This document shows positions 7,628 through 36,707 of a stretch of DNA of 64,000 bases, piece by piece. Origin of the DNA: an uncultured bacterium (lineage in GTDB: Bacteria; Patescibacteriota; Dojkabacteria; J137); assembly GCA_963700155.1 (NCBI GenBank), contig OY969472.1, positions 445,511-509,510 of the forward strand, given 5' to 3'. Below the pieces are notes generated by a model. It worked only from the letters and a program-made list of their open reading frames with translations, made no database searches and was not told where the DNA came from. Each line of letters opens with the position of its first letter. The first letter of the stretch is position 1. The position numbers were made by a program, and so were the translations under genes.

Positions 7628-8704
7628 CTAAGCTTTCAGAATTTTGTACACTCGAATCTCCCTAGCTTGTTTATCTTTAATAATGAAGTCTGCATAGTAG
7701 TATTGGATTTTTTCGAAGAATTTTTCATCAAGATTCATAACCACACTCGGCCATTCTACAGCAATAATATTCCCAGGTTTTACCCATTCTTCAAATCTTA
7801 AAAGGTCAAGGTCTTCTTTTGTTTGAATCCTCCAGGCATCCATATGAAAAAGTTTATGATTTTCACCAAATTTATATTCATTAACATAGTTGTAAGTTGG
7901 AGATTTTATTACACGATCTATTCCTAAACCCTTGGCAGTCCCTTTTGTAAATTGGGTTTTCCCAGCTCCAAGCTCTCCATTCAATAGAATTAAAATAGGG
8001 GAAGAAGTTAGTTCTGGAAGTTTATTTTTTATAAAAATTTCTCCTTGCGAAATAGTTTCTTCTACGGAATTTGAAACGTAAGTTTCAAATTCCGTGACCT
8101 TTGTTGGATCAATTCTTCCTTCTCTATGAACTTTTAAATCTTCAGATGTTGTATCTATCACAGTTGTAGGAGGATTATGTGGAAGTTCTCCAGCATCTAT
8201 AACTAGATCAATTAAATCCCTCTGCTTTTCAGAAATATTATTCAAAATGTCATTAACAGTATATGGAGTTTTTTTTCCAGTCAAATTTGCTGATGTCACT
8301 GTAATAGGCTTACCAAACCTAGAAATTAAATCTAACAAAAATTTAAAATTTGGAATTCTTACTCCTAATGTGTGAGATTCAGACTCGAGTCTTGAATCAA
8401 CTTTATTTTTAGAATTTGAAACTATTGTGACAGCGCCCGGAAGGAATTTCTTGTATAAATTTTGAGCAACTGAGTTAAGCTCAACATATTCTTCTGCCAT
8501 TTCTTTATTCAAAACTGCAATAGGAATTGCCCTTCCTTCCGGGCGCTTCTTATACTCTAATAATTTAGTAACTGCAGTATGATTTGTTGCATCAACTGCA
8601 ACCCCATAACAAGTTTCCGAAGGAAATATTACTAATTTCCCATTATTTAAACACTTTACACTTTCTTCTATATTTTTTGGGTCTTCTAAACTGATTGTTT
8701 TCAT
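7628..8704 (-). CDS. Fusion protein: L-threonylcarbamoyladenylate synthase (TsaC/YrdC domain) + TsaE (YjeE ATPase) for tRNA t6A37
   Basis: The N-terminal half has YrdC/Sua5 motifs (FPSETCYGVAVDA; ITVTSANLTGKKTP). The C-terminal half has TsaE signatures (LNGELGAGKTQFTKG ... IKSPTYNYVNEY ... FHMDAWRI). Confidence 0.75.
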   Translation of the reverse strand: MKTISLEDPKNIEESVKCLNNGKLVIFPSETCYGVAVDATNHTAVTKLLEYKKRPEGRAIPIAVLNKEMAEEYVELNSVAQNLYKKFLPGAVTIVSNSKNKVDSRLESESHTLGVRIPNFKFLLDLISRFGKPITVTSANLTGKKTPYTVNDILNNISEKQRDLIDLVIDAGELPHNPPTTVIDTTSEDLKVHREGRIDPTKVTEFETYVSNSVEETISQGEIFIKNKLPELTSSPILILLNGELGAGKTQFTKGTAKGLGIDRVIKSPTYNYVNEYKFGENHKLFHMDAWRIQTKEDLDLLRFEEWVKPGNIIAVEWPSVVMNLDEKFFEKIQYYYADFIIKDKQAREIRVYKILKA

Positions 8705-10573: not shown

Positions 10574-11611
10574 ATGAAAAAAAACTTCTTTATAATCTTA
10601 ATCTTTGTAATAATCTCTTTTATAATTATACAAAAAGTAAGGGCTCAGGAAACTGGAGTTATTGTTTCACCACCAACATTCAGTAAAAATTTGCAAGAAG
10701 GAACAAGCTATAACCAATTATTTAACGTAACAAACCAGAAAACCCAGGATAATGAATTTTTTATAACGACAAGGGACATTACAGTTGATGATAATGGTCA
10801 GTTTACTTCAGTAGAAAATCAAGATGGTAATAATGAATCTACTTTTGTAAAAAATGGATGGCTTACAATAACCCCAAGTTCTTTTTTTTTAAAGAGAGGA
10901 GAGTCCAACCAGTTTTCAGCACATTTTGATGTCCCATTAAATTTTCCTACTCATGGTTATTATTTTGAAATTGTTGTTACTACCAAAAAACCACAAGAAC
11001 AAGGTGGTAAAGTTGGATTAGTGACTGAAGTCGCTATACCATTGAGTGTAAATTACATTGGGAAAGAGGATGAAATAAGGAAATTCGCTATTGCCACTTT
11101 TGACAGTACATCTGATGCATTTACTACTACAAACTTTTTGTATGAGTATCCTCCAGTTGAATTTAAAACTGTACTTCAAAATATTGGGAATGTAAATGTT
11201 GTACCAACTGGTGAAATCTTTATTTCAAGAGACAATTCTTTTTCAAATGTTATTGCTACTATTCCTTTCAATCCAACAGGACAAACAGGTTTTGCAGGCA
11301 CTTTCAGAGAATTTCAAAACACTTGGGATGGTGGTTTCTTAACATTAGATGATAATAATAGACTACAAGTAAATTTTAATCAGCTTAGTGACTTTAGAAT
11401 AGGGCAGTATTATGCTCAGCTTAATGTTGTTTGGGATGGGCTGCAAGGTAAAGAATTTGAGAATAGAATAATTACATTCTGGATAATTCCTTGGAAATTA
11501 ATATTACTTTTAGTTGGTATAATAATTGTAATAATATTCTTACTGATAAGAGGGAGAAGAATTAAAAGAAGAAAAAACAAACAGCAAATATTTACAAATT
11601 TTAATCAATAA
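10574..11611 (+). CDS. Cell-surface protein with N-terminal signal peptide and C-terminal TM + basic tail (DUF916-like, CscA-type)
   Basis: The signal peptide is MKKNFFIILIFVIISFIIIQKVRA. The C-terminal anchor is LILLLVGIIIVIIFLLIRGRRIKRRKNKQ. The N-domain pattern (P..NLQ...SYNQLF.V.NQ....DNGQF) recalls DUF916. Confidence 0.5.
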   Translation: MKKNFFIILIFVIISFIIIQKVRAQETGVIVSPPTFSKNLQEGTSYNQLFNVTNQKTQDNEFFITTRDITVDDNGQFTSVENQDGNNESTFVKNGWLTITPSSFFLKRGESNQFSAHFDVPLNFPTHGYYFEIVVTTKKPQEQGGKVGLVTEVAIPLSVNYIGKEDEIRKFAIATFDSTSDAFTTTNFLYEYPPVEFKTVLQNIGNVNVVPTGEIFISRDNSFSNVIATIPFNPTGQTGFAGTFREFQNTWDGGFLTLDDNNRLQVNFNQLSDFRIGQYYAQLNVVWDGLQGKEFENRIITFWIIPWKLILLLVGIIIVIIFLLIRGRRIKRRKNKQQIFTNFNQ

Positions 11612-12468: not shown

Positions 12469-13646
12469 ATGCTACCAGCAACAAGAAAAGTTAAAGTATC
12501 TGTATAATCCCCTGCACTTATAGTAGTTTCGTCAGCTTTAGCTTTCACATAATAACTAATTCTTCCCTCATAAACCGGTGAACTTGAAGAATTTAATATT
12601 TCAGTCCCAGGAAAAACATCCGAAATACCACCTACGATGTTTCCACTCTGACTAAAACTACTAGTCGCTTGAAGTGGACCTAAATAAGTTTGTGTTGTTG
12701 AATATTCTTGTATTCCAAATCCTTTAGCAGAATCTAAATCAACATCTATAGAGGGGATTGTATTACTAGAAGAAGCACTAAAAAGACCTCCATTCAAACT
12801 TTCTCCAAACACCTGAACTCCTTGAGTCATATTTGTTCCTACATCCATCCAGATTAGGTTGGCGGCGGTCGAAACATTCGGATAAGTAATCGTCCCAAGA
12901 TCAACAGCATATGGTCCGCCTGTTTCGACCGCCGCTCCAGAAGTATTTGCAATATCAATATCAAAAGTTATCATTGGATAAGAAGTTGTTGTATTTGCAT
13001 CAGTACTAGGTTCAGTTTCAGTAAAATCACCATGCAAAGCTGTTAACTTCAAATAATAAGTTGTATTTGGATTTAATCCTAAAATATTAAATGTTGGAGT
13101 TTCCCACGAAGATTCAGTTAAATAATCATTAATATCATGACTTGCAGCATTTTCTATCAAAAATGTTGAACCATCAATATATTGCCAGGTGCTCCATGAT
13201 GGATCAGTAGAAATTCTTACACTATATAAAGTGTCACTGGGGTTATCCTGTGGATCTATCTCAAACCTAGCTTTGTTAAAACATCCCCCTTGTCCACAAA
13301 CTTCAACCATTCCAGCTGTAACAGCAGGATTATCACAAGCACTAGACCCTGAGGATATAGTTTCAAAACATTTTACTTTCGGAACGTTTGCTTTCCATGT
13401 GTTTGTAACTCCTGTTCCAAGTGTATAATTATTTGAACTAAATCTTACATCATTTAATATTTCATCTCCTGAGATCAAGCTTTTTAAATTTGTTCCATCA
13501 ACTGAATTTTCTCCAGTTGTAGAAAAAGTAAAATCTTTAATTTTTAAATTATTTGAATCTAAATCTTCTGCAAAAATAACACTTGAAAATAATGTTGTGA
13601 TTAGAAAAAAAAATATAAGAATTTTTAGAGTATTTATTTTATTCAT
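12465..13646 (-). CDS. Secreted surface protein, WxL-like C-terminal motif (paralogue of 9413-10534)
   Basis: The signal peptide is MNKINTLKILIFFFLITTLFSSVIFA. The C-terminus ...AGDYTDTLTFLVAGSI shares the DYTDTLTF motif and internal blocks (VDLG...GTN...GG...NGGL) with the 9413 protein. Confidence 0.5.
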   Translation of the reverse strand: MNKINTLKILIFFFLITTLFSSVIFAEDLDSNNLKIKDFTFSTTGENSVDGTNLKSLISGDEILNDVRFSSNNYTLGTGVTNTWKANVPKVKCFETISSGSSACDNPAVTAGMVEVCGQGGCFNKARFEIDPQDNPSDTLYSVRISTDPSWSTWQYIDGSTFLIENAASHDINDYLTESSWETPTFNILGLNPNTTYYLKLTALHGDFTETEPSTDANTTTSYPMITFDIDIANTSGAAVETGGPYAVDLGTITYPNVSTAANLIWMDVGTNMTQGVQVFGESLNGGLFSASSSNTIPSIDVDLDSAKGFGIQEYSTTQTYLGPLQATSSFSQSGNIVGGISDVFPGTEILNSSSSPVYEGRISYYVKAKADETTISAGDYTDTLTFLVAGSI

Positions 13647-13805
13647 ATAACGTTCATTCTAATTGTTAGAAGACTACAAAGTCAAACTTTCTTAAGCAAT
13701 AAATTATTGACACCAGGTATCTATTCCTATAAGCTGTATTATTGAACTATTAACCTTTTTATTTAACTTTGCACGACTGCTTTTGATATATACTAATTAA
13801 ATATC

Positions 13806-16800
13806 GTGCACAAAGTTAACTCAATAAACAGAAGAGAATTTTTCATTGCTATATTTAGCATTCTTTTTTGTATATTTATTTTACTCAATCAAAGAATTCA
13901 GCATGTATTCGCAGCTTCAAATAGTACAATTTCTATCCAAGGTAAAATTGTAGATAAAAACGACGGGACTAATGTAACTTCGTCAAGTGTAGCTTGCATA
14001 AATAATGGAGGTCCGGATGCTTGCAAATTTAGAGTTAGTATTTATGATGGAAATACTGGAAGCGATACTCTACTATGGCAAGAAACTCATACAAATGTTG
14101 AAATCGGGGATACTGGAGGAATATTTAATTTGAACTTGAACTCAATTTGTGGAAGCTGGGACAATCCCACTACTCCATGCAGTGGAAGTGGAATTACTTG
14201 GGGCAGCGGGGATCTATATATTCAAATCGATGTTGATGTAGATAATGACAATAGTTATTCCGAATCCTTCCCCGCTGCCCCGGCAGATAGACCGTTATTT
14301 ACTAGTGTTCCATATTCATACTACTCTGATGTTGCTGGGACAGTTCCTGCAAACAGTTTAGATTTCACTGAGTTTAAAGATACAATGACATTAGATAATT
14401 CAACTATTATAGATTTTGGATCATCTACAAATAGTTTTACTCTTCTAAATAATGGTTCTGGTGATGGTATTGTAAATTTAACTTCTACTGGTGGATTTAA
14501 TATCCAAAGTGGTGGTAACACATACGCACAATTCACGGCAGCCGGAAATGTAGGAATTGGATTAGCTACAGCACCGGATGGGAAATTACAAATTAAAACA
14601 GATAGTACTGCTGCATCGGGTAGTACTTACGGACTGCATGTTAATGGTTCACAATCTACTGCAAATTCAGGTTCTTATTATGGAGTATATTCAAATCCAA
14701 GTTATACTGCTGCCTCCGGTAATACGTTAAGTTTTCTTTATGGAGGCAATTTTAGCCCCTATAACGGATCAACAGGAACAATTTCATATTTATATGGTCT
14801 ATATAGTGGACCTAATAATACTGTTGGGGGTTCGATTGGTTCAATCTATGGGTTAAGTGCAGCACCAACAAATTCTTCAAGTGGTTCTATAACATCAATG
14901 TATGGAATTTCAGCTGTAACTATAAAATCAGGCACTGGTACAATTGGTACTGCATATGCATTGTATGGACAAGTGAGGAATAATAACGCAACTGGGGCAA
15001 TTACAACTGGATATGGTCTTTATATCGACACACCAGCCACAACTGGAGCTATTACAAATAACTGGGGTATTTATCAAGCTGATACTGCAGGCTTAAACTA
15101 TTTTGGAAATAAAAGCAGTTTTGGAACAACTACTGCGACAGCATATTTAAATTTAGCTCCAAGCACCACATCACAAGCTAGTTTAAGATTAGTAAGCAGT
15201 GCAGGCACAGATCCTTCTTCTGCTAATAGTGGAGATTTATGGTGGAATGGAACTAACCTTTACTTTAATGATGGTGGCTCAAATACTGATCTCTTAGCTG
15301 GAGGTGGTTGTGGAGGTAGCTGCTTTGAACAGGGAGGAAATGCTTTTGGTGCAACTGGTGTTCTTGGTACAACAGATTCTAATGATGTCTCAGTTATAAC
15401 TAATGGAACTAATAAATTATATATACAAGATTCTACCGGTAATGTTGGTGTTGGTAATAATAATCCTACTTCACTTTTCTCGGTTGGCTCTTCATCTGAA
15501 TTTCAAATAGATTCTTCTGGTAATATCGTTAACTTAGGTGGTGCTGCTCATTCTATTGCTAACTCATCTGGTGCTCTTAATATTGATTCTGCTTCAACAG
15601 GAGCTATTAATATTGGGACATCTTCTAATGCTAAAACTATTACTGTTGGTAACACTACTGGTGCTACTGGTTTAGTCTTTAACTCTGGTACAGCTGGTAT
15701 TTCATCTACTTCTACTGCGACATCTGGTAATGCATTTTCATATACTGCTAATTCTCTTAGTAGTGGTAATGGTCTTTATGTTACATCAACCGCTGCTTCC
15801 TTCTCTGGTTCTTTAGCTAAAATTTTCTGGAATCCTACTTCTGGTAGTACTGCTACTGGTGATTTATTTACTATTGACACTGCTGGTGGAAGTGTTTTAG
15901 GTAACTTATTCAATGTTAAAGATGGTGGTAGTTCTTTATTCTCTGTTTCTCAGACTCAGGTCACTTCCACCATTCCTGTTCAATTTAATGCTCCTGGTGA
16001 TGTTGCAATTGCGTATGATATTGTTTTAACAAATCCTGTAGCATCATTTGTAAAGTCAAACTCTAATTTAAATTTACAGGCTGGAGCATCTTTTGCATCA
16101 TCAAATTTAACTTTAAGTACATTTAATAGCGGGATGATCGTTCTTGATTCTGCTACTGTTTATGCTAATGGGAATGTAGGCATCGGAGTCTCTCCTTCTT
16201 ACAAGCTTGATGTTCTGGCAAGTGGGACAGGAGTAATCGCTAGATTTAATAGCGCTAATACTACTGGTTGTACTCTAGCTACTGGTGGAACTATTTCTTG
16301 TTCTTCTGATGTTAAATTAAAACAAGATATTGCTGATATTAATTATGGAATCGGCACTGTAATGCAGCTTAGACCTGTCTCATTCAACTGGAGAAATCAA
16401 GATAATCCTTATAAAAGTTTAGGGTTTATTGCACAAGATGTTAATTCAATTTTACCTAATTTAGTAACAGTTGATTCAGCTTCTGGGAACATGGAGTTAA
16501 ATTCTATCGGATTTATTCCAATATTAACTAAAGCAATCCAAGATCAGCAGGAAGAGATTACTGCAATGCAGTCAGTTTTAGGTATTTCAACAAACGGGAG
16601 TGCAGCTCATATTTTAACGCAGGAAAATATTCTAAGTTATTTAAACAATACAACAATTCCTAATTTTAAAGTTAAAAAAATCACTATAAATGAACAGCTT
16701 ATTGCTAAATCTGTTGTAGTCGTAGGTGATACTACGTTTATTGGTAAGGTTAGTGTTGGAAGCGATACTGCAGGGAAAGCAACTATAAAAGCAGGGGAAA

Positions 16801-17012
16801 GTAATGTTAAGGTAATGTTCTCATCATCATATCAAGAAGCACCTATTGTAACTGTAACCGCCGTAAATTCATCTGTAATCTATAAAGTTAAAAATATTTC
16901 AAACAATGGATTTACAATCGAATTGAGTAATCCAGAGACAAGCGATATTGAATTTAATTGGATTACAGTTGGAATAACTCAAAGTACACCAGCTTCATAC
17001 CCACTTAATTAA
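13806..17012 (+). CDS. Large secreted fibre-like protein: Gly/Thr/Ser-rich beta-repeat body + tail-fibre intramolecular chaperone (Peptidase S74-like) domain + C-terminal H-type-lectin-like domain
   Basis: 1068 aa with an N-terminal TM/signal. CSSDVKLKQDIADINYGIGTVMQLRPVSFNWRNQ...LGFIAQDVNSILPNLV matches the Ser-Lys autoproteolytic chaperone domain of phage tail spikes and endosialidases. The terminal segment VKVMFSSSYQEAPIVTVTAV...NNGFTIEL...IEFNWITVG resembles an H_lectin domain. Confidence 0.7.
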   Translation: MHKVNSINRREFFIAIFSILFCIFILLNQRIQHVFAASNSTISIQGKIVDKNDGTNVTSSSVACINNGGPDACKFRVSIYDGNTGSDTLLWQETHTNVEIGDTGGIFNLNLNSICGSWDNPTTPCSGSGITWGSGDLYIQIDVDVDNDNSYSESFPAAPADRPLFTSVPYSYYSDVAGTVPANSLDFTEFKDTMTLDNSTIIDFGSSTNSFTLLNNGSGDGIVNLTSTGGFNIQSGGNTYAQFTAAGNVGIGLATAPDGKLQIKTDSTAASGSTYGLHVNGSQSTANSGSYYGVYSNPSYTAASGNTLSFLYGGNFSPYNGSTGTISYLYGLYSGPNNTVGGSIGSIYGLSAAPTNSSSGSITSMYGISAVTIKSGTGTIGTAYALYGQVRNNNATGAITTGYGLYIDTPATTGAITNNWGIYQADTAGLNYFGNKSSFGTTTATAYLNLAPSTTSQASLRLVSSAGTDPSSANSGDLWWNGTNLYFNDGGSNTDLLAGGGCGGSCFEQGGNAFGATGVLGTTDSNDVSVITNGTNKLYIQDSTGNVGVGNNNPTSLFSVGSSSEFQIDSSGNIVNLGGAAHSIANSSGALNIDSASTGAINIGTSSNAKTITVGNTTGATGLVFNSGTAGISSTSTATSGNAFSYTANSLSSGNGLYVTSTAASFSGSLAKIFWNPTSGSTATGDLFTIDTAGGSVLGNLFNVKDGGSSLFSVSQTQVTSTIPVQFNAPGDVAIAYDIVLTNPVASFVKSNSNLNLQAGASFASSNLTLSTFNSGMIVLDSATVYANGNVGIGVSPSYKLDVLASGTGVIARFNSANTTGCTLATGGTISCSSDVKLKQDIADINYGIGTVMQLRPVSFNWRNQDNPYKSLGFIAQDVNSILPNLVTVDSASGNMELNSIGFIPILTKAIQDQQEEITAMQSVLGISTNGSAAHILTQENILSYLNNTTIPNFKVKKITINEQLIAKSVVVVGDTTFIGKVSVGSDTAGKATIKAGESNVKVMFSSSYQEAPIVTVTAVNSSVIYKVKNISNNGFTIELSNPETSDIEFNWITVGITQSTPASYPLN
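15600..16700 (+). repeat. ~1.1-kb near-identical duplicated segment, copy A (partner at 21306-22415), mosaic with a more divergent ~200-bp core
   Basis: Direct nucleotide comparison: 15600-16010 versus 21306-21715 and 16215-16695 versus 21920-22415 differ only by scattered SNPs. 16010-16215 versus 21715-21920 is clearly more divergent. Confidence 0.8.
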
Positions 17013-17380
17013 GGAGTAGAATTTGAATTACTTTGAGAGATTTGGGCTACATTTACAATCTTATTTACAGATGCTCTATAAATAATTGCCTCAGAAGTAA
17101 AAATAATTAGAGTATCACCATTAACAGCATTTTTATAAAATTCCGGGTCTTCGTTTTTTAACTGGTCAATATTACTAATAGTAGCAATTTTAGGATTAGA
17201 CTCATCGGGTAATATTATTAAGTCAGTAAGATTAGAAATAATACTTTCTTTTGTTGATTGTTGAGATTGTAAATCTACTTGATTTTTTAAGATCACATAT
17301 TGATATACCAAGAAACCCATTACAGTTAAGAAAATGAGCACTATTAGAATTAACAAAATATTTTTATTTTTTTTAACCAT
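17009..17380 (-). CDS. Small single-pass membrane protein carrying one copy of a novel ~45-aa repeat (shared with 35988-36707)
   Basis: 123 aa. The N-terminal TM is ILLILIVLIFLTVMGFLVY. The repeat is ...PKIATISNIDQLKNEDPEFYKNAVNGDTLIIFTSEAIIYRASVNKIVNV. Confidence 0.55.
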   Translation of the reverse strand: MVKKNKNILLILIVLIFLTVMGFLVYQYVILKNQVDLQSQQSTKESIISNLTDLIILPDESNPKIATISNIDQLKNEDPEFYKNAVNGDTLIIFTSEAIIYRASVNKIVNVAQISQSNSNSTP

Positions 17381-17498
17381 AAAAAGTGACTTAAATATTG
17401 ATATAGACAGCGTTTCAGTCTAGAATAAATCGTAAACCATTTTTTTTGGAATATCAACTATATCTTTATAAGAAAAGTTGGTTATTAATTAACAGATA

Positions 17499-20400
17499 TT
17501 GAAATTGAACAAAATTACTAAAATAATAATTTTAGCTTTCTTAGTCTTTGGGTTTATTTTACCTACTTTAAGTTTAGATGCATCAACAAGAAGTACAATT
17601 GAATTTAAATCTGGAATAGTTGACCAAGATGGTACTCCACTATCTGATGGAATTTATAATTTTGGATTTATAATCTTTAATCAATCTACTGGGGGTTCAT
17701 CACTTTGGAGCGAAAATTGGTCAAGTGTCGAAGTAAGGAGAGGTCAAGTTAGTGTAGATTTAGGATCTATAAATCCTTTTCCTGATTCCTTGTTTGCTAA
17801 TGATTCTTTGTACCTTCAAGTTTGTTTAAATGCTAATGGAATAGCAGGAGATGGTTCTGGATCTTGCGGTGGAAATTATGAAGAAAGTTTTAGTCCAAGA
17901 AAAGCTATAACAGCAGTAGCATGGTCATATAGGGCAAACACTCTCTCATCTGTAGATATAGCTAAAGATGAAACTGCATATAATCTTAATATATACGGAG
18001 ACTCGGGAACGCTATTAAATTTAAATTTCAATAGTACTAGCCAGTTTAATATAGGTTCAGCAGGTAGTTTATCACTAGGAACTGGAAATAGTTCTTTCTT
18101 ATTCTCGCCAACAAGCAATTCTATTAATTTGACAGGAACAACAGATATATATTTCGGTGCTAACGCTTCCCTCAGGAACAACTCATCTTCAGAAAATTCA
18201 GGTGCAAATATTATTGGGGTTTATACTGAAGGACTTCAAAATATAACAGGAAATACTTTGCAAAAAGTAATAGAAAATATCGATGGATTATTTAAATGGA
18301 AGCCAGGTACATCATCTTCAATTTCTTATAGTGGTGGAAATGTAGGAATTGGAACAACCACACCTAATTATTTATTAGATGTAAATGGGACAGGAAGTTT
18401 TTCAGGTGGATTAAAAATAGGAAACACAACAACAGGGGTGGCTGGAATGTTAAGATGGAACGGATCAGATTTTGAAGGATATAATGGAAGCTCTTGGAAT
18501 TCTTTAACTTCAGGTGGCGGAGGGGGCAGTCCATCTGGAAGCGATGGATATATACAATTTTATAGCTCAGGATCATTTGGGAGCAGTGCTAATCTTAATT
18601 GGAATATAGCAAATAGCTATTTAACAATTGGCTCATCAGCCGGGACTTCGGGAATACTAAATTTAGGACCAGCCACTACAACAAGATCCTCATTAAATTT
18701 AGCAAACTCTTCAGGGGTAAATGTTTCTAGTCCAACATCAGGAGATTTATGGTGGAATGGAACAAATCTTTATTTTTATAATGGATCATCAAATGTTGAC
18801 TTATTGGCTAGTGGCGGAGGCTCATGTGCTACATGCTTTCATCAAAGTGGAGATGCATTTGGAACAACAGCTACTTTAGGAACTACAGATTCAAATACAT
18901 TATCAATTATTACAAATAATACACCAGCTATTACTATATTAAGTGATGGGAAAGTTGGTATCGGGGTATCTCCTACTGTAAAACTTGATGTGGCCGGAGC
19001 TGTAACTTTAACAGGTGTTTTAACAACTGGAAGCTCAGCAATCTCATTAACATTAGCAACAGGTTACATTGATGCTAATGCAATTACATTATCTGGTTCA
19101 ACATTAGATGTCACTTCGAATGGACTTAAAGTTGCTGATGGTGGTATTACTGGTACTCAACTAAATTCAAGCGTAGCTGGGACTGGTCTAACAGGAGGAG
19201 GAGGCTCTGCTTTATCTGTTCTTTATGGATCATCTGCTGGTAATGCTGTTCAAGGGAATACTTCAATAACTGTTAGTGCTGGATCGGGATTAGGAGGTGG
19301 TGGAAGTATTACTTTAGGAAGTGGCGGAACTGTCACTTTGAATAACGCTGGTGTTACTGCTTTCAATACTTTTACTGGTGGTATAACTTTGAATGGAACG
19401 ACAAATCAAGTTAATATTGATAATAATTCAGGGACTATTACACTTTCTACACCTCAGGATATTGACAGTTCCGCCACACCAACGTTTGCCGGAGTCTTGC
19501 TTTCAGGCTTATCTGCAAGTTCTGCAGTCTATACAGATGGATTAAAAAATTTAACAACAACTGCTCCAACTACAGGAGCTATAGGATATTTAAGTAGAAC
19601 CGGGACAACATTATCTCCAGCAACTGCAGGAGATAACTTTACCACATCAGGTGATATTTCGACTTCAGGTTCAGGTACTATTACATCAACAGGGTTATTA
19701 ACAGGAAATTCTGGGTTAACAGTTTTAGGGACAACTTCGATTAATGCTTCTGGAATTGGGACTACAACAATCGGAAGTGGATCGGGAACAGTTACAATTG
19801 CAGATGGAACTGGTAATTTAAATTTAGGTAATAGCTCAGGAACATTCTCTTTAACATCAAATGGTGGATTAAATGTTACAACTGGGGGAAATATTACTGC
19901 TGGTACATATAATGGGAATACTTTAACGTCTACAGCATTAACTTTCTCGGGTTCTAATCCAAATATTTCCCCATCTACAGGAAATACCGGAATAACAATT
20001 AACGCAAATGGGAGCGGAACGATCGGAATTGGAGCGACTTCAACTGGAGATATATTATTGGGTGGAGGTAGCGGTTCTACAGGTTGTACAATCGAAAATT
20101 CTACAGGAAATCTAACTTGTTCCGGAACAATAAGTGGATCGAATACTACAAATTATTGGAGCAGAGTGGTTACAACATTATCTCCAGCTACTGCAGGAGA
20201 TGATATAACTACAGCTGGGAATATTTACACCTCAAGTTCAGGCACTATTACATCAGATGGTTTAATAACTGGAAATTCTGGGTTAACAATTTTGGGGACA
20301 ACTTCGATCAATGCATCAGGCACAGGAACAACTACAATTGGAAGCGGGTCTGGAATTGTAACTATTGCTAATGGAACTGGTAACTTAGCTTTAGGAAATT

Positions 20401-22766
20401 CCACTGGAACATTCTCTTTAACATCTAATGGTGGTCTAAATGTCACTAGCGGTGGGGTGCTAATGGGTGCAACTGGAATAAATACTACCGATGCAACAAG
20501 TTTAGCAATAGGTAATGCTACTGGAACTTTTTCTTTAACCTCAAATGGAGGATTAAATGTAAGTACAGGGGGAGCTCTTACAGGTGTAGTAAGTATAAAT
20601 TCAACAGATACCTCAGATTTGGATATTGGCAATTCATCAGGAACACTCACATTAACATCTAATGGTGGCTTAAATGTAACAAGTGGAGGTGCCTTAACAG
20701 GTGTTGCTAGTATTAATACAATTACTACAACTTCCTCTGCATTAACTTTTGCTGGGGCCGGAACCATTTCGGCTTCTTCAACAGGTTTGGATATTCAATC
20801 TGATGGGAGCATTGACGTTAATATCGCCGGAGGTTCCGGCTCCACTGGCTGTACAATTGAGAACTCTACAGGTAATTTAATATGTTCCGGTACAGTAAGC
20901 GGGACCAATATTACAAGTAACTATTGGAGTAGATCAGTAACAACATTATCACCTGTAAATGTTGGAGATAACATAACTACATCAGGTTCTGGGACAATAA
21001 CATCAGCTGGGTTACTAACTGGCTCAAATGGAATTACTGTAACAGGAGGTGATGCAAATATTAATGCTTCAGGTACTTCTAACACATCAATAGGTAATGG
21101 ATCTGGAACATTTGATATTACTTCTAACGGCGGATTAAATGTAAATACGACTGGAGACTTAACTGGAGTAGCTAGCATTGATACAATAACAACAACTGCA
21201 ACTAGTTTAGGGTTTGCGGGAACTGGAACAATATCTTCCGGTGCTGGAACTGACTTAAATATAACATCAGGAACTACTGGAATATTAAACTTAGATTCAG
21301 GCTCAACAGGAGCTATTAATATTGGGACATCTTCTAATGCTAAAACTATTACTGTTGGTAACTCTACTGGTGCTACCGGTTTAGTCTTTAACTCTGGTAC
21401 AGCTGGTATTTCATCTACTTCTACTGCGACATCTGGTAATGCATTTTCATATACTGCTAATTCTCTTAGTAGTGGTAATGGTCTTTATGTTACATCAACT
21501 GCTGCTTCCTTCTCTGGTTCTTTAGCTAAAATTTTCTGGAATCCTACTTCTGGTAGTACTGCTACTGGTGATTTATTTACTATTGACACTGCTGGTGGAA
21601 GTGTTTTAGGTAACTTATTCAATGTTAAAGATGGTGGTAGTTCTTTATTCTCTGTTTCTCAGACTCAGGTCACTTCCACCATTCCTGTTCAATTTAATGC
21701 TCCTGGTGATGCCACATTTGCTTATGACTTAGTTTTGACTAATACAACTGCATCATTTGTGAAGTCTGACTCTAATTTAAATTTACAAGCTGGTGAAGTA
21801 TTCAACTCATCAAATTTAACTTTGAGCACTTTTAACAGTGGGATGATTGTTCTTGATACAGCAACGGTCTACACTACAGGGAATGTAGGAATTGGTACAA
21901 CACCTTCATATAAACTTGATGTTCTAGCAAGTGGGACAGGAGTAATCGCTAGATTTAATAGCGCTAATACTACTGGTTGTACTCTAGCTACTGGTGGAAC
22001 TATTTCTTGTTCTTCTGATGTTAAATTAAAACAAGATATAGCTGATATTAATTATGGAATCGATACGGTAATGCAACTTAGACCTGTCTCATTCAACTGG
22101 AGAAATCAAGATAATCCTTATAAAAGTTTAGGGTTTATTGCACAAGATGTTAATTCAATTTTACCTAATTTAGTTACAGTTGATTCAGCTTCTGGAAACA
22201 TGGAGTTAAATTCTATTGGATTTATTCCAATATTAACTAAAGCAATCCAAGATCAGCAGGAAGAAATTACTGCAATGCAGTCTGTTTTAGGCATTTCAAC
22301 AAATGGAAGTGCTGCTCATATTTTAACGCAGGAAAATATTCTAAGTTATTTAAACAATACAATAATTCCAAGTTTTAAAGTTAAAAAAATCACTATAAAT
22401 GAACAGCTTATTGCACAATCAGTAATTGTGATTGGAGATACTCAGTTTTATGGGCAGGCTGATTTTAACAATAATGTAAATGTAAAGGATAAAATCAGCC
22501 TTGGGAAAAATGGAGCTGGGAAAGTAACAATAAAATCTGGAGCTACAAAAGTTTCAGTTAAATTTAACTCTGCATATAACCAAACTCCTATTGTTAGCGT
22601 TTCCCCAAATAATATATTACCGAGTGGAACAAATTATGCAGTTACAAATATTAGTAAATCGGGATTTGATATTGAAATAAGTTATTCTACAAATTCAGAT
22701 ATTGAGTTTAGCTGGATAGCAGTTGGAACAACAATAGATTTACCTGTTTCATATTCAAGCAACTAA
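17499..22766 (+). CDS. Giant secreted fibre-like protein (1755 aa), paralogue of 13806-17012: internal Gly/Thr repeats + S74-like chaperone domain + H-type-lectin-like C-terminus
   Basis: It has an N-terminal signal/TM. It shares the blocks SGDLWWNGTNLYF...C..CF..G.AFG and SSDVKLKQDIADINYGIDTVMQLRPVSFNWRNQ... with the 13806 protein. It contains long in-frame internal repeats. Confidence 0.75.
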   Translation: MKLNKITKIIILAFLVFGFILPTLSLDASTRSTIEFKSGIVDQDGTPLSDGIYNFGFIIFNQSTGGSSLWSENWSSVEVRRGQVSVDLGSINPFPDSLFANDSLYLQVCLNANGIAGDGSGSCGGNYEESFSPRKAITAVAWSYRANTLSSVDIAKDETAYNLNIYGDSGTLLNLNFNSTSQFNIGSAGSLSLGTGNSSFLFSPTSNSINLTGTTDIYFGANASLRNNSSSENSGANIIGVYTEGLQNITGNTLQKVIENIDGLFKWKPGTSSSISYSGGNVGIGTTTPNYLLDVNGTGSFSGGLKIGNTTTGVAGMLRWNGSDFEGYNGSSWNSLTSGGGGGSPSGSDGYIQFYSSGSFGSSANLNWNIANSYLTIGSSAGTSGILNLGPATTTRSSLNLANSSGVNVSSPTSGDLWWNGTNLYFYNGSSNVDLLASGGGSCATCFHQSGDAFGTTATLGTTDSNTLSIITNNTPAITILSDGKVGIGVSPTVKLDVAGAVTLTGVLTTGSSAISLTLATGYIDANAITLSGSTLDVTSNGLKVADGGITGTQLNSSVAGTGLTGGGGSALSVLYGSSAGNAVQGNTSITVSAGSGLGGGGSITLGSGGTVTLNNAGVTAFNTFTGGITLNGTTNQVNIDNNSGTITLSTPQDIDSSATPTFAGVLLSGLSASSAVYTDGLKNLTTTAPTTGAIGYLSRTGTTLSPATAGDNFTTSGDISTSGSGTITSTGLLTGNSGLTVLGTTSINASGIGTTTIGSGSGTVTIADGTGNLNLGNSSGTFSLTSNGGLNVTTGGNITAGTYNGNTLTSTALTFSGSNPNISPSTGNTGITINANGSGTIGIGATSTGDILLGGGSGSTGCTIENSTGNLTCSGTISGSNTTNYWSRVVTTLSPATAGDDITTAGNIYTSSSGTITSDGLITGNSGLTILGTTSINASGTGTTTIGSGSGIVTIANGTGNLALGNSTGTFSLTSNGGLNVTSGGVLMGATGINTTDATSLAIGNATGTFSLTSNGGLNVSTGGALTGVVSINSTDTSDLDIGNSSGTLTLTSNGGLNVTSGGALTGVASINTITTTSSALTFAGAGTISASSTGLDIQSDGSIDVNIAGGSGSTGCTIENSTGNLICSGTVSGTNITSNYWSRSVTTLSPVNVGDNITTSGSGTITSAGLLTGSNGITVTGGDANINASGTSNTSIGNGSGTFDITSNGGLNVNTTGDLTGVASIDTITTTATSLGFAGTGTISSGAGTDLNITSGTTGILNLDSGSTGAINIGTSSNAKTITVGNSTGATGLVFNSGTAGISSTSTATSGNAFSYTANSLSSGNGLYVTSTAASFSGSLAKIFWNPTSGSTATGDLFTIDTAGGSVLGNLFNVKDGGSSLFSVSQTQVTSTIPVQFNAPGDATFAYDLVLTNTTASFVKSDSNLNLQAGEVFNSSNLTLSTFNSGMIVLDTATVYTTGNVGIGTTPSYKLDVLASGTGVIARFNSANTTGCTLATGGTISCSSDVKLKQDIADINYGIDTVMQLRPVSFNWRNQDNPYKSLGFIAQDVNSILPNLVTVDSASGNMELNSIGFIPILTKAIQDQQEEITAMQSVLGISTNGSAAHILTQENILSYLNNTIIPSFKVKKITINEQLIAQSVIVIGDTQFYGQADFNNNVNVKDKISLGKNGAGKVTIKSGATKVSVKFNSAYNQTPIVSVSPNNILPSGTNYAVTNISKSGFDIEISYSTNSDIEFSWIAVGTTIDLPVSYSSN
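19550..20990 (+). repeat. Intragenic tandem-like coding repeats within the 1755-aa fibre gene
   Basis: Repeated protein units: LSPATAGD..T.G.I.TS.SGTITS.GL(I/L)TGNSGLT(V/I)LGTTSINASG.GTTTIGSGSG.VTIA.GTGNL.LGNS.GTFSLTSNGGLNV, and GGSGSTGCTIENSTGNL.CSGT.SG.N.T.NYWSR.VTTLSP. The underlying nucleotide copies are about 85-90% identical (for example 19600-19870 versus 20190-20460, and 20060-20215 versus 20825-20985). Confidence 0.7.
21306..22415 (+). repeat. ~1.1-kb near-identical duplicated segment, copy B (partner at 15600-16700)
   Basis: Same comparison as above. It covers the S74-like chaperone domain region of both fibre genes. Confidence 0.8.
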
Positions 22767-22779
22767 GGATAAGTCACTT

Positions 22780-23907
22780 ATGCTAAAAGATAAATTTAAT
22801 AAGATTAAAAAAGTAATAGAAAAAAATAAACTCCTAAAAAGTTTTAAAGGAAGGCTTATTTACATATTAAAGCAATTAGATCAGAGATTTAAAATAATAA
22901 AAAGTTGGGGATTAAAGAATAGAAAACATCAATTTTTGGGTACGATATTCATTTTAATGATTCTTTTACCTATAGCTTCCATTTTAATGTTTTTATTTAC
23001 TAAACCTGTTCAAGCAGACTGGTTTAATGCAAATTGGAGTTTTAGAAAAAGAATAGATATAGTTAATAGTTCTGGTACAACACTTACAAATTTTCAGGTT
23101 AAATTTTCAATTGATACCGCTTCACTTTATTCAACTGGGAAATTAAGATCAGACTGTGGAGATATTAGAATTACTGACAATCAAGGTAAAATTCTTCCGT
23201 ATTGGATCGAGACATCAAATGTAGCCTGTAATGCAAATAGCAGTCAAACCATATGGACTAAAATTGACAGTATTCCTTCAAGTGGTGCTAATAATGTTAA
23301 ATATATCTATCTTTACTATGGGAATCCGCTAGCAACCTCAACACAAAATGGGAATGACACTTTTGATTTCTTTGATGATTTTTCATCATCAACCTTAAAT
23401 TCTAATAAATGGACTGCAACTGGGGCATATTCAATATCATCTGGGGCTTTAACAATAACAACTGGATCTGTATATTCGAATAATACTATAGTTTCATCAA
23501 ATCAAAATGAAATGTTCGAAATGAGAGCTAAATGGGCGACTACACAAACTTCATATTCAGGTATAATGATTTCAAATGCAAATAGCATTCAAGGTGGTAA
23601 TGCTGGCTCCAATAAACTTTCTATGTTGATGACAAATGCTGGAGTAGGTATTGATCAACAGGCATTTGCAGCTGATGGGACATCAGCAACGTATAATATT
23701 GTAAACAATATAACTCAGTTTACACCAACAGCAAACACATATTATTTTTCTGGATTTTCTCATACAACTTCAAACCTAAGATATTATCAAAATCGTTCAC
23801 AAACAAATTCATATTCAGATACTGCAAATTTTTCACCATATTTATTTTTGGGATATTTTGCAGGTTCAACTGCAGGCACTCGCAGATACAACAGATACAA
23901 CTATTGA
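22780..23907 (+). CDS. N-terminal fragment of a giant surface protein: signal-anchor + DUF2341 + start of a concanavalin-like module (reading frame lost near 23875-23890)
   Basis: It is paralogous to the N-terminus of 29356-35889 (NRKHQFLGTIFILMILLPIASILMF...VQADWFNANWSFRKRIDI versus NRRHQFLSILLILLFFLPIASVIT...VQAAWFNENWQYRQRLDI). The DUF2341 hallmark ...YIYLYYGNP is present. This ORF ends 50 nt after the next ORF starts, in another frame. Confidence 0.7.
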   Translation: MLKDKFNKIKKVIEKNKLLKSFKGRLIYILKQLDQRFKIIKSWGLKNRKHQFLGTIFILMILLPIASILMFLFTKPVQADWFNANWSFRKRIDIVNSSGTTLTNFQVKFSIDTASLYSTGKLRSDCGDIRITDNQGKILPYWIETSNVACNANSSQTIWTKIDSIPSSGANNVKYIYLYYGNPLATSTQNGNDTFDFFDDFSSSTLNSNKWTATGAYSISSGALTITTGSVYSNNTIVSSNQNEMFEMRAKWATTQTSYSGIMISNANSIQGGNAGSNKLSMLMTNAGVGIDQQAFAADGTSATYNIVNNITQFTPTANTYYFSGFSHTTSNLRYYQNRSQTNSYSDTANFSPYLFLGYFAGSTAGTRRYNRYNY

Positions 23908-26900
23908 TTTTGTTATAGCAAGAAAATTTTCAACTACAGATCCTAATCTTACTCTAGGCTCAGAAGAAATCACTCCTAATCCAACTGCTGATTGGAGTTT
24001 TGATGAGGGGCAAGGTCAAGTTGCATATGATAAGACATCAAACTCTAACAATGGACAACTCGGGTCTACATCAGGTTCTGATGCAAATGACCCTACTTGG
24101 GAAACCGAAGATCAGTGTGTTATAGGAAAATGTCTGCTTTTTAATGGAAGTAGTAATTATGTTTCTCTTACCCCTAACTTACAAACTATCAGTCAGATTA
24201 CTATTTCTGCTTGGTTTAATACGAATACAGCAACATTTCCAAATTCATTCAGAATGCTTTTTTCATCATCATCCGGATCATCTTATCTTGCTCTTGCTTA
24301 TACTGGGGCAAGTCCTTTTGTTTCATTTGATATAGGAGGTACTCAACACGCACTAAATTCCAATTTTACCCCTTTGTTAAATCACTGGTATTACGTTACC
24401 GCTACTTATGACGGTAACTTTATTAGAATTTATGTCGACGGTATTCTTAGGAATACTAGTGCTCAATATACAGGTACATTAAATGGGTTCACTTCAGGAG
24501 CTATGTATATAGGCAAATACATTGCTCCGGGATATGAATTCAGTGGAAAACTAGATGAAGTAAAAATTTATCCATATGCAAGATCAGCTGATCAAGTCAA
24601 AGTTGATTATAATGGTGGTGCAGAAGTTCTTGGAGATCAAACTCAAGCCTATCTTTCAAACGGATTAGTTGGTTATTGGAAGATGGATGAAAACACCTGG
24701 GGTACTCCAGATTGCTCTACTAATATTGTTCTAGATTCTTCAGGAAATAGTAATAACGGCAAGGCTTGTCCCAATGCTAGCGGACCTACTGGTGCTGCAG
24801 CTGGTAAGTTTGGTAATGGTGGTTTGTTTGATGGCTCTAATGACTATGTTGATACTGGTACTTCATATGAATCAACCTTCCAGGATAGCTATACATTTGC
24901 TTTCTGGACAAAACCTACTGATGGTCACCCTGCGGCCACTCAAATCCTTGCTGGTACTAATCCAGCAACAAACAATATTGTTAAAATATTCCTAAATACT
25001 GATGGAACGCTTGCTTATCAGTATCAAAATAATTCAATTGGGACAGTCGCTCAAACTGCTTCAGCTGTATTTTCTGATGGTCCTCAAAGTTCTTGGACTC
25101 ATATTGCTATTGTTGCAGATGCTAACATTAATGGTATTGGAGGTCTTAAGATTTATGTTAATGGACAATCTGCTACTTTAGATGGTGCTGCAACTGGCGA
25201 TACTTCTGGTATTACGTTCAGTACCTATACTAATTCTAATAATTTTTACTTTGGAGCCCGCAATAGTAATGGATCACCACAGAATTACTATGCGGGCTCA
25301 TTTGATGATTTAAGAATCTATAAAAGAGCTCTTTCTTCTTCTGATGTTCTATCTTTATATAACTGGGCCCCTGGACCTGTACTTAACTATAATTTAGACG
25401 AAAATACCGGCACCACTGCCCATGATACTAGTGGGTTCAATAATAATGGGACATTAACAAATGGTGCTACTTGGAATGCAGGTAAATATGGAAGTGGAGT
25501 ATCTTTTGACGGAGTCAATGATTATATTGATACACCTGATAGCAGTTCTCTTTCTCTTAACTCACAAATAACAATAGATGGATGGATAAAATTGGTTAGT
25601 GGCATGAGTACCAGCAGCACTCAAAAACAAACAATTGTTGATTCTGTAGATTACAACCTTTATCTTGATAATGCTGATGGGAAAGCTCATTTCGATCTAA
25701 ATGATTCAACTGCAGATAGTTTACTAGCTACTACAGACTGGAATTTAGGAGCAATATATGGATTTGATGGTATTGTTGGTACTATGGCTTATTTTAATGG
25801 AGCTTTATATGTTGCAGGATCGTTTAATGCAATTTGTGGTAATGCAACTTGTGATAGCGGAAATATCACTGCTCATCATATTGCAAAATGGAATGGATCT
25901 TCTTGGACTGCTGTCGGATATGGCGTGAGTTCTACAGTCTATTCCATTCAAGTGTACAATGGAGAACTATATTTAGGAGGGGCTTTTTCATCTATTTGTG
26001 GTAATGCAACTTGTGACAGTGGAAATATTACTACGAATCGAATTGCAAAATGGAATGGATCTTCATTTAGTACCGTGAGTTATGGTTTCAATAGTTCAGT
26101 CCGTACATTTGTAACATATAATGGAGAATTATATCTAGGAGGAAATTTTACAGTTATCTGTGGCAATACTGCATGTAACAGTGGGAATGTTACCACTAAT
26201 TCTATAACAAAATGGAATGGATCCTCGTTTAGTACTGTAGGATATGGAATGAATAATCCAGTCTATACGGTTAGTATATATGACGGGAAATTAATACTAG
26301 GCGGAGCTTTTAGCAGTATCTGTGGCAACACAGCATGCAACAGTGGAAATGTTACCACTAATTATGTAGCAAGGTGGGATGGATCCACTTTTAGTACATT
26401 TGGGTTTGGAATGAATGCAAATCCTAATTCTTTTGAAATATACAATGGGACATTATATACCGGAGGGAATTTTACAGCTATTTGTGGTAATACTGCATGC
26501 AACAGTGGGAATACAAATACTAATTTTATAGCAAAATGGAATGGATCTTCTTGGACTGCAGTATCCTATGGGCTATATAATCCTTTCGGAAGGGTTGATA
26601 CGTTGGGGGTCTACAATGGTAAATTATATGTGTCTGGAACTTTTACAGGGATATGTAATGATGCGGCTTGTAGTAGTGTTACTTCAGCGAATGATTTAGC
26701 TGCATGGGATGGATCTTCTTGGAGTCTTGTAGGAAATGGAATAGAGATAGGGAGGAGTATCAGTTACTTTATAAATTATAATGGGAATTTATATTTTTCG
26801 ACTAATGCAAGTTATCTTTGTGGAAATAGTACTTGTGATAGTGGGAATATTCCTATTTATAATTTTGGACAAATAGGGACAACAAATGTAAAAACAGTTA

Positions 26901-35987: not shown

Positions 35988-36707
35988 ATGAATCCACAAA
36001 GTCCATTACAGCAGAATCAAAATTCTCAACATAATTTTTCTCAGCAACAAGTGATGCCTCCAAATCAGGCTAAAAAAGGAAGGAAGTCTTTCTTAAAAAG
36101 AATCTGGAATACCAAAAGTGTTTTAATTATTGTTGCTATTTTACAGATCATCATCATTGTTTTAATTCTGAATCCAGTTGCATTAGTTCAGCAATATCAA
36201 AATCAGCAGATTATAAATGAAGTTGCAGCAAAAACAGCAGTCAACACTGCCGAGAGTCCAGTAATTGCCACAATTACTAATGCAGATCAACTAAGAAGTG
36301 CGAACGCTGCTCAAGCACAGGTCTATAAAGATGCACAGAACGGAGATTATGTTCTAGGATATTCAGATAAAATGATAATTTATAGAAGAGGTACTGGAGA
36401 AGTAATTTATAATGGTGATAATCCTAATGATTTAGTAACACATACTCAAGAGAAATTAGTAAGTGATATTGTAGATAAAGCTAAAAAACAGAATCTAATC
36501 TCATCAGATTCTACTGAAACACCTCAAATATCAATAATTACTGATGTAAAAAGTTTACAAACTGCAAACCCTGATTTTTATAGCATAGCTAGGAATAATG
36601 ACATTGTTGCTTTATTTCCACAAGAACAATTAATTGTTTTGTATAATCAAGAAACAAGCACAATAGTAAATTCTGGTAAATATTCAACCAATATTTCAAA
36701 TCTTTAA
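35988..36707 (+). CDS. Single-pass membrane protein with Q/N-rich cytoplasmic N-terminus and two copies of the novel ~45-aa repeat seen in 17009-17380
   Basis: The TM is VLIIVAILQIIIIVLIL. Repeat 1 is PVIATITNADQLRSANAAQAQVYKDAQNGDYVLGYSDKMIIYRRGTGEVIYN. Repeat 2 is PQISIITDVKSLQTANPDFYSIARNNDIVALFPQEQLIVLYNQETSTIVN. Confidence 0.55.
   Translation: MNPQSPLQQNQNSQHNFSQQQVMPPNQAKKGRKSFLKRIWNTKSVLIIVAILQIIIIVLILNPVALVQQYQNQQIINEVAAKTAVNTAESPVIATITNADQLRSANAAQAQVYKDAQNGDYVLGYSDKMIIYRRGTGEVIYNGDNPNDLVTHTQEKLVSDIVDKAKKQNLISSDSTETPQISIITDVKSLQTANPDFYSIARNNDIVALFPQEQLIVLYNQETSTIVNSGKYSTNISNL

Follow-up and report, generated by a model that had tools for sequence, protein, structure and literature searches.

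Bacterial paralogues can be homogenised by interlocus gene conversion, a form of concerted evolution for which tufA/tufB of Salmonella are an example. Cassette antigenic variation is known from the surface-protein genes pilE/pilS of Neisseria, mgpB/MgPar of Mycoplasma genitalium and vlsE of Borrelia. The Mu Gin and P1 Cin systems and shufflons need inverted repeats and a site-specific recombinase, and diversity-generating retroelements (DGRs) need a reverse transcriptase together with adenine-specific template and variable repeats. Phage fibres that carry an S74 chaperone are cleaved at its conserved serine. In this study, we analysed two tandem fibre genes, A and B, which share a nearly identical internal module in the chromosome of an uncultured Dojkabacteria bacterium, a member of the candidate phyla radiation (CPR). 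Both lie in a 64-kb window, the whole stretch of DNA analysed (64,000 nt; positions 445,511 to 509,510 of contig OY969472.1), and all coordinates below refer to this window. The shared module very probably records recent interlocus gene conversion between A and B, in at least two tracts of different age.

Fibre gene A (13806–17012, + strand) is an open reading frame (ORF) of 1068 aa with a Peptidase_S74 domain (PF13884), and its product is identical to the public protein P0131. Fibre gene B (17499–22766, + strand) encodes 1755 aa; the public record starts at 17505, and protein P0125 equals B minus its first two residues. Both proteins are rich in Gly, Ser and Thr and begin with a signal-peptide-like hydrophobic N-terminus. 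They are best explained by one domain order, namely a signal peptide, an N-terminal beta domain, a Gly/Ser/Thr-rich shaft, a stem domain, an internal Peptidase_S74 chaperone, a linker and an H-type-lectin-like domain. The architecture of B is that of A with roughly 700 extra codons of internal shaft repeats. The difference in length of about 700 codons reported by the first-pass annotation of this locus was thus reproduced (687 codons). Most of it is made up by diverged repeats in the B shaft (19587–21184, + strand), which form families D2 and D3 with 61–80% identity and periods of 567 nt and 117 nt. Tandem Repeats Finder detected only a 24-nt repeat at 19290–19339, the B shaft repeats being too diverged for this tool.

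The repeat search combined a self-BLAST of the window with a BLASTN comparison of gene A against gene B. It returned one ungapped alignment of 15585–16739 with 21294–22448, covering 1155 nt with 90 mismatches (92.2% identity). This module, on the + strand in both genes, corresponds to aa 594–978 of A and aa 1266–1650 of B. It is the sole repeat above ~80% identity within the window. The offset between the copies, 5709 nt, is divisible by 3, so both are in the same reading frame, and 61 of the 90 mismatches fall at third codon positions.

The mismatches were strongly clumped and divided the module into three parts, all on the + strand. Block 1 (15594–16002, equivalent to 21303–21711) covers the first part of the conserved stem domain and differs at 3 of 408 nt (99.3% identity), namely 15654, 15668 and 15791, with a synonymous divergence (dS) of 0.019. 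The centre (16003–16205, equivalent to 21712–21914), referred to below as the divergent island, covers the second part of the stem domain and differs at 52 of 201 nt. Block 2 (16206–16705, equivalent to 21915–22414) codes for a pre-chaperone strand, the entire S74 chaperone and 37 aa of linker; it differs at 18 of 498 nt (96.4% identity; dS 0.149). The longest identical run was 211 nt, a length reached in none of 20000 permutations of the 90 mismatches (permutation maximum, 155 nt). Differences in density were significant between block 1 and the centre (Fisher's test, p = 7e-25), between block 2 and the centre (p = 1e-17) and between the two blocks (p = 0.0036). The mosaic is far from chance.

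These results agree with the earlier description of two nearly identical blocks with only a few single-nucleotide differences, whose coordinates were correct to within 3–11 nt of the BLAST-refined ones. The roughly 200 bp between the blocks had been described as much more divergent. This was confirmed at the nucleotide level (~74% identity), but the amino acid sequences of the centre are still 79% identical without gaps and are clearly homologous, not unrelated. Changes in the centre were concentrated at third codon positions (34 of 52), with a nonsynonymous divergence (dN) of 0.14, a saturated dS of ~1.65 and a dN/dS ratio of 0.09. The island lies 35–100 aa upstream of the predicted cleavage serine.

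Across these adjacent segments of one reading frame, dS therefore took values of 0.019, ~1.65 and 0.149, a range of about 80-fold. Since constraint at the protein level cannot erase synonymous differences, the near-identity of the blocks reflects recent copying. The C-terminal 480 aa of A and B are 82% identical. Upstream, a mid patch (aa 419–550 of A and 367–489 of B) is 53–57% identical and the N-terminal domains ~29%; the remainder is unalignable. The terminal lectin-like domains, or tips, are also distinct. That of A (16740–17009, + strand; 90 aa) was not homogenised, and that of B (22449–22763, + strand; 105 aa) is 51% identical to it at the amino acid level and 59% at the nucleotide level, with two indels (dN 0.47, dS 1.29, dN/dS 0.37). 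The earlier statement that the extreme C-termini remain distinct was thus correct.

When the B tip was used as the query of an exhaustive search, A (P0131) and B (P0125) were retrieved along with P0126 and P0127, two large proteins of other organisms that have the same C-terminal architecture. In block 1, A and B are 99% identical to each other and 42–59% identical to P0126 and P0127 (58–59% for P0127). The corresponding values are 79% versus 58–65% for the centre, and 99% versus 32% for the chaperone. For the tip, identity is 51% between A and B, 54% between B and P0126, and 48% between A and P0126. The paralogues are therefore closer to each other than to the homologues of other species inside the converted tracts and not outside them. 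Outside the module, A and B are as diverged from each other (29–57%) as from the fibre proteins of other organisms. Near-identity within the module, combined with a tip no closer than that of a foreign protein, is a signature of gene conversion. The low dS of the tracts (0.019 and 0.149), far below the values for the centre (1.65) and the tip (1.29), points in the same direction. Recent recombination or gene conversion between paralogues, as proposed at first pass, is thus upheld by the heterogeneous dS, by 99% identity in the module against 29–57% elsewhere and by the discordance of the tip.

Gene conversion between paralogues has been treated in general terms (PMC3924837, PMC6053082), and persisting islands of divergence have also been discussed (PMC3728101). 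Features shared with described interlocus conversion are tracts of near-identity that include synonymous sites and lie between old flanks, sharp tract ends and islands of divergence. The fibre pair differs in that homogenisation is confined to one internal module of two multidomain genes that otherwise have little in common, in that the copies are tandem and direct, and in that no orthologous pair was found for comparison. A and B would be old tandem paralogues, and the stem and chaperone module would have been copied from one gene into the other, putatively by RecA-type, non-reciprocal homologous recombination without crossover between direct copies 5.7 kb apart. Block 1 would represent the youngest tract and block 2 an older one, with the 200-nt island and the lectin-like ends left unconverted. 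The island (74% nucleotide identity) and the ends (59%) may have been too diverged for heteroduplex formation, or selection may have maintained their differences; the data favour neither explanation. We infer both the recombination mechanism and its direction from the sequence comparison. Homology to P0127 starts ~50 aa further upstream in A than in B, a weak hint that A may have donated block 1 to B.

The sharp block edges would also be compatible with a single transplantation of the module, either from gene to gene or into both genes from a third copy or another strain, after which the central 200 nt would have been overwritten by a diverged allele of a third donor. Movement of fibre modules between lineages is indeed seen. 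In A and B, the chaperone cassette (aa 785–930 of A; 16150–16600) is 53–64% identical to that of P0001–P0010 and only 32% identical to that of P0126, P0127 and P0130. These three proteins are the nearest to A and B in their stems and tips, and their chaperones are 66–70% identical to one another. This mismatch between the cassette subtype and the stems and tips shows an older chaperone swap between fibre lineages. However, a single transplantation requires an additional, unseen donor, and no third copy was found within the window. It is also not expected to leave blocks 1 and 2 with different divergence (p = 0.0036). Furthermore, both centres are colinear and ungapped with their flanks and about equally distant from P0126 and P0127 (58–65%). 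We consider this scenario unlikely.

The integrity of the repeat was assessed using the Logan assembly of run ERR11571143, which contains this organism and was produced with a separate assembler. Contig L013 corresponds to 16683–19336 and runs without interruption from the A tip across the spacer to the B N-terminus. Contig L014 corresponds to 22392–25374; its start had been predicted beforehand from the repeat offset (16683 + 5709 = 22392). Both contigs begin at the same homologous base, at the 3′ edge of block 2 and ~23 nt before the first copy-specific difference, and each continues into its own unique sequence. A shared break followed by different unique flanks is expected of a real two-copy repeat in a de Bruijn graph and argues against a chimeric join. 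The concern raised at first pass, that a collapsed or chimeric assembly might underlie the pattern, was therefore not borne out at the 3′ edge.

Near-identical blocks could also have been created by cross-copy consensus polishing, and genomes derived from metagenomes are error-prone in repeats. Small clusters of changes relative to the Logan contigs (17814 and 17816; 23853–23879, including a 1-nt indel) do indicate local consensus uncertainty. An artefact, whether by collapse, chimerism or polishing, nevertheless appears highly improbable. Both reading frames (1068 and 1755 aa) are intact through the repeat, the copies still differ at 90 positions with the stated excess at third codon positions, the two contigs built by another assembler pass from the repeat into separate unique flanks at one and the same homologous base, and L013 is contiguous from the A tip through the intergenic region to the B N-terminus. 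The substitutions at 17814 and 17816, in the N-terminal part of B, and a further one at 2503, in the trigger factor gene, could reflect either variation between strains or errors in the consensus.

Several points weigh against recent gene conversion as we have reconstructed it. Run ERR11571143 is possibly the read set behind the genome itself, and L013 and L014 prove shared 31-mers at one edge only, while polishing with multi-mapped reads could have inflated the identity of the blocks. A third copy outside the 64-kb window, elsewhere in the 1.14-Mb genome, may have acted as donor to both genes. Searches of proteins, genome contigs, metagenome contigs and viral contigs returned no sister strain, and all protein clusters checked, including those of RpoC and S7, were singletons at 90% identity. 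The direction and timing of conversion thus cannot be read from orthologues. Moreover, dS in the centre is saturated, so that the age of the centre is a lower bound only.

The identification of the chaperone is based on several lines of evidence. PF13884 (Peptidase_S74) matched A with 47.9 bits (aa 834–887) and B with 50.7 bits, at a cut-off of 22. The motif ISCSSDVKLKQDI, present in both proteins, supplies the S-D-x-x-x-K Ser-Lys dyad (S834/K839 in A, S1506/K1511 in B). In A, the dyad motif S834-D-V-K-L-K839 is encoded at 16305–16322 (+ strand), and the B copy at 22014–22031. Its S, D and K residues are at least 90% conserved among 27 homologues (alignment A1), and the region aligns to SSDRRIKKDI of phage S16 gp37 (PDB 6f45). 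An AlphaFold2 monomer model was poor for the stem (predicted local distance difference test, pLDDT, below 50 for residues 1–230) and confident for the chaperone (pLDDT 78–92, model residues 250–340) and the end domain (pLDDT 80–92 for the A tip). A Foldseek search with the chaperone fold matched the MyRF ICA domain (7dc3; probability 1.00, E = 2.7e-3) and, more weakly, 3gw6.

Among described S74 fibres and tailspikes of phages (K1F endosialidase, 3gw6; T5 pb1; S16 gp37, 6f45), A and B resemble the known cases in an S74 match above the cut-off and in the dyad. They also share with them a conserved chaperone cassette placed on unrelated shafts and the exchange of cassettes between genes. Unlike the phage genes, A and B are chromosomal, stand among housekeeping genes with no phage genes nearby, and are only 24–32% identical to phage proteins. 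The position of the chaperone also differs. The serine is followed by 234 aa in A and 249 aa in B, against ~90–130 aa in the phage proteins, so that the chaperone is internal and lies outside the ~90–150 aa that define an extreme C-terminal one. The closest CPR homologues have 177–354 aa after the serine, and most of the more distant matches have the canonical 92–128 aa.

Self-cleavage is predicted at S834 and S1506 from the conserved dyad. With 234 or 249 aa between the serine and the C-terminus, cleavage of the canonical S74 type would take away the lectin-like domain along with the chaperone and would leave the stem domain, including the divergent island, as the distal end of the mature fibre. 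The lectin-like ends would thus leave the mature fibre, if S74 cleaves here as it does in phage fibres. This distal-end prediction is modelled on endosialidase and T5 pb1; as in T5 pb1, the island could lie at the distal end after the chaperone cut. MyRF, which provides the best structural match to the chaperone, likewise has an internal S74-type chaperone and additional domains downstream of it. Unlike A and B, MyRF is a membrane-bound transcription factor of eukaryotes, and the sequence relationship is limited to this domain. MyRF releases its N-terminal part. By analogy, one possibility is that the internal S74 of A and B releases a soluble, trimeric chaperone–lectin fragment.

For the terminal domains, PF09458 (H_lectin) scored 31.4 bits with the B end domain alone, above its cut-off of 24, and 19.8 bits with that of A, below it; in the whole-protein scan of B, the score was 26.7 bits. 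The best Foldseek matches of the lectin-like end were 4q56, 2ccv, 2ce6 and 3wmp (target TM-scores 0.51–0.53, probability 1.00, E from 2e-3 to 5e-3), with further matches to 6cl5 (R-type pyocin fibre end) and 7eea (Pam1 tailspike end). In addition to the H_lectin match, which is above the cut-off for B only, the last 90–105 aa resemble in fold the H-type lectins (Helix pomatia agglutinin, 2ccv; SLL-2, 3wmp; discoidin II), R-type pyocin ends (6cl5, 6cl6) and the Pam1 tailspike (7eea). The A/B domain differs from H-type lectins in that it follows a predicted self-cleaving chaperone and so may be absent from the mature fibre.

A search with the tip domain among 1.84 billion cluster representatives gave 946 matches at E ≤ 1e-3. 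The chaperone was recognisable upstream in 56 of the best 150 tip matches (cluster representatives at 50% identity), with a median of 130 aa between the catalytic serine and the beginning of the tip in matches with a chaperone. P0001–P0015 and P0126–P0135 likewise have an internal S74, then a linker and a beta domain that is either H-type-lectin-like or K1-lyase_C-like. A chaperone with a lectin-like domain after it occurs outside this genome as well. In the literature collection searched, no paper named both the S74 chaperone and H-type lectin domains, and none linked S74 and Patescibacteria.

The stem domain of block 1 has homologues with 37–59% identity in CPR fibre proteins (P0012, P0016, P0017, P0127 and L001–L009). 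The named best homologues of A and B are all annotated as "tail fiber domain-containing protein" and come from metagenome-assembled genomes of Patescibacteria or Parcubacteria. A and B are best explained as secreted or surface fibres, presumably trimeric. CPR contigs L001–L009, which end after a block-1-like domain, were considered as carriers of repeated chaperone modules, and this was rejected, as their ORFs run into collagen-like GPTGATGVT repeats or other shaft sequence and contain no S74 motif. Roizmanbacteria-type fibre proteins of loci L003/L007 (~10700–11064) and L004 have a block-1-like stem domain followed by long collagen-like GPTGATGVT repeats, at which the contigs end.

The earlier annotation had further suggested possible tip-swapping and a pattern typical of phase- or antigen-variation-like cassette exchange. 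Neither suggestion is supported by the data. The lectin-like ends are the parts that were not exchanged, while the stem and the chaperone were homogenised. Silent or truncated donor cassettes were not found, as each copy is part of a complete ORF whose product starts with a signal-peptide-like segment and the window contains no third copy. No inverted repeats were present in 13000–23500, and none of the window ORFs scanned was identified as a recombinase, an invertase or a reverse transcriptase. An inversion switch or shufflon was rejected on these grounds. The elements required by Mu Gin, P1 Cin, shufflons and DGRs, systems which alter distal fibre ends, were thus missing from the ORFs scanned and from 13000–23500. 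The mismatches in the centre (n = 54) had A in copy A at 14 positions and in copy B at 22, and comprised 26 transitions and 28 transversions. A DGR was rejected as well, given mismatches that are not adenine-specific, the predominance of third codon positions among the centre changes and the lack of a reverse transcriptase among the ORFs scanned.

Programmed variation, in which the blocks would serve as recombination anchors and the island, tips or shafts would be exchanged or deleted at high frequency to vary a host-attachment fibre, nevertheless deserves consideration. The conserved-variable-conserved layout resembles mini-cassettes, and surface fibres are plausible targets. The 409-nt direct repeats, 99.3% identical and 5.7 kb apart, are good substrates for RecA-dependent deletion or duplication and would allow a 5.7-kb deletion fusing the A shaft to the B end. 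Against this, the window holds two copies, both complete, with no silent cassettes, and the signs of inversion systems and DGRs are missing as described above. The saturated dS of the island and its dN/dS of 0.09, indicative of purifying selection, show that it was not recently exchanged; it has long been stable and is not diversifying. The two Logan contigs retrieved, L013 and L014, both show the reference arrangement only. Programmed variation is very unlikely here. More specifically, if the bacterium is an episymbiont, the pair might serve to vary its host-attachment fibres by recombination, through an anchored island swap or fusion of the A shaft to the B end, and this we regard as quite unlikely. 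The likeness to pilE/pilS, mgpB/MgPar and vlsE consists of surface-protein genes, conserved segments flanking variable ones and non-reciprocal recombination between copies. The difference is that in A/B no silent or multiple donors were seen, and that the conserved parts were exchanged while the variable parts had no recent exchange. A variation system is more than the evidence supports.

The host chromosome is 1.14 Mb long with ~30% GC, and proteins identical to those of the window lie on a single public contig of 1,140,724 bp. Its size and composition, together with the names of the best homologues, suggest a CPR origin. The window codes for trigger factor, a class I (Trp/Tyr-type) tRNA synthetase, phosphoglucomutase, a Sua5-TsaE fusion, RpoB, RpoC, S12 and S7, as well as a second class I tRNA synthetase and queuosine salvage. 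A prophage context was rejected, since PHROGs matches were confined to the chaperone region of A and B, with none in neighbouring genes, and the flanking genes are housekeeping genes. A homologous gene stands among housekeeping genes in two other CPR genomes too. A and B are cellular chromosomal fibre genes, not phage genes.

The locus of P0127 in a relative (L017/L018) has a single fibre gene, in the order small divergent ORF, fibre gene, DUF2341–Laminin_G_3 gene and 233-aa ORF, which is the same synteny as in the window. B is thus the positional orthologue and A the extra copy. A small membrane-anchored protein of 123 aa is encoded between A and B (17009–17380, − strand); the gene was also called in Logan contig L013, and the protein is 50% identical to that of L017:9507–9899, which is divergently oriented upstream of the fibre gene. 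A scan of the A–B spacer for promoters and terminators gave no more sites than shuffled sequence. A 239-aa protein (35988–36707, + strand) contains two copies of the domain of the 123-aa protein and is 56% identical to the 233-aa ORF of the relative. The genes at 17009–17380 (− strand) and 35988–36707 (+ strand) bracket the fibre and Laminin_G_3 cluster, occupy the same positions in L017 and have no Pfam match.

Downstream of B, two giant tandem paralogues (23858–29332 and 29356–35889) carry six and nine Laminin_G_3 domains, and L017 has one such gene. These paralogues share only stretches of 72–75% identity (e.g., 24093–24852 versus 31346–32105) and, unlike the fibre pair, show no recent homogenisation. 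The ORFs 22780–23907, with DUF2341, and 23858–29332, with the six Laminin_G_3 domains, overlap in different frames. The C at 23879 is missing from Logan contig L014, which also differs at 23770, 23853, 23855 and 23860 and contains one continuous ORF of more than 864 aa. DUF2341 and Laminin_G_3 are joined in one protein in the paralogue 29356–35889 and in L017:16811–20140. The continuous ORF in L014 and these one-protein homologues indicate that the frameshift in the window is a consensus error, a pseudogene or a population variant. Two unusual gene fusions were also observed elsewhere in the window. One (7628–8704, − strand) joins Sua5/TsaC to TsaE in a single 358-aa protein, and the other (56652–59483, + strand) places a Ser_hydrolase domain within a class I tRNA synthetase, at aa 494–654.

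Recent conversion between A and B is an ordinary and known evolutionary process in a new place, and the pair offers a clean textbook case of interlocus gene conversion. Its practical value lies in annotation and assembly, as a 1.15-kb in-frame repeat of this kind breaks short-read assemblies. For the biology of the group, the locus indicates that phage-type, self-chaperoned fibre genes are part of the ordinary chromosomal gene content of CPR bacteria, and that an internal S74 followed by an H-type-lectin-like domain is an architecture recurring in dozens of protein clusters. If these fibres mediate host attachment, the boundaries of the module would separate shared assembly machinery from the parts that may carry specificity.

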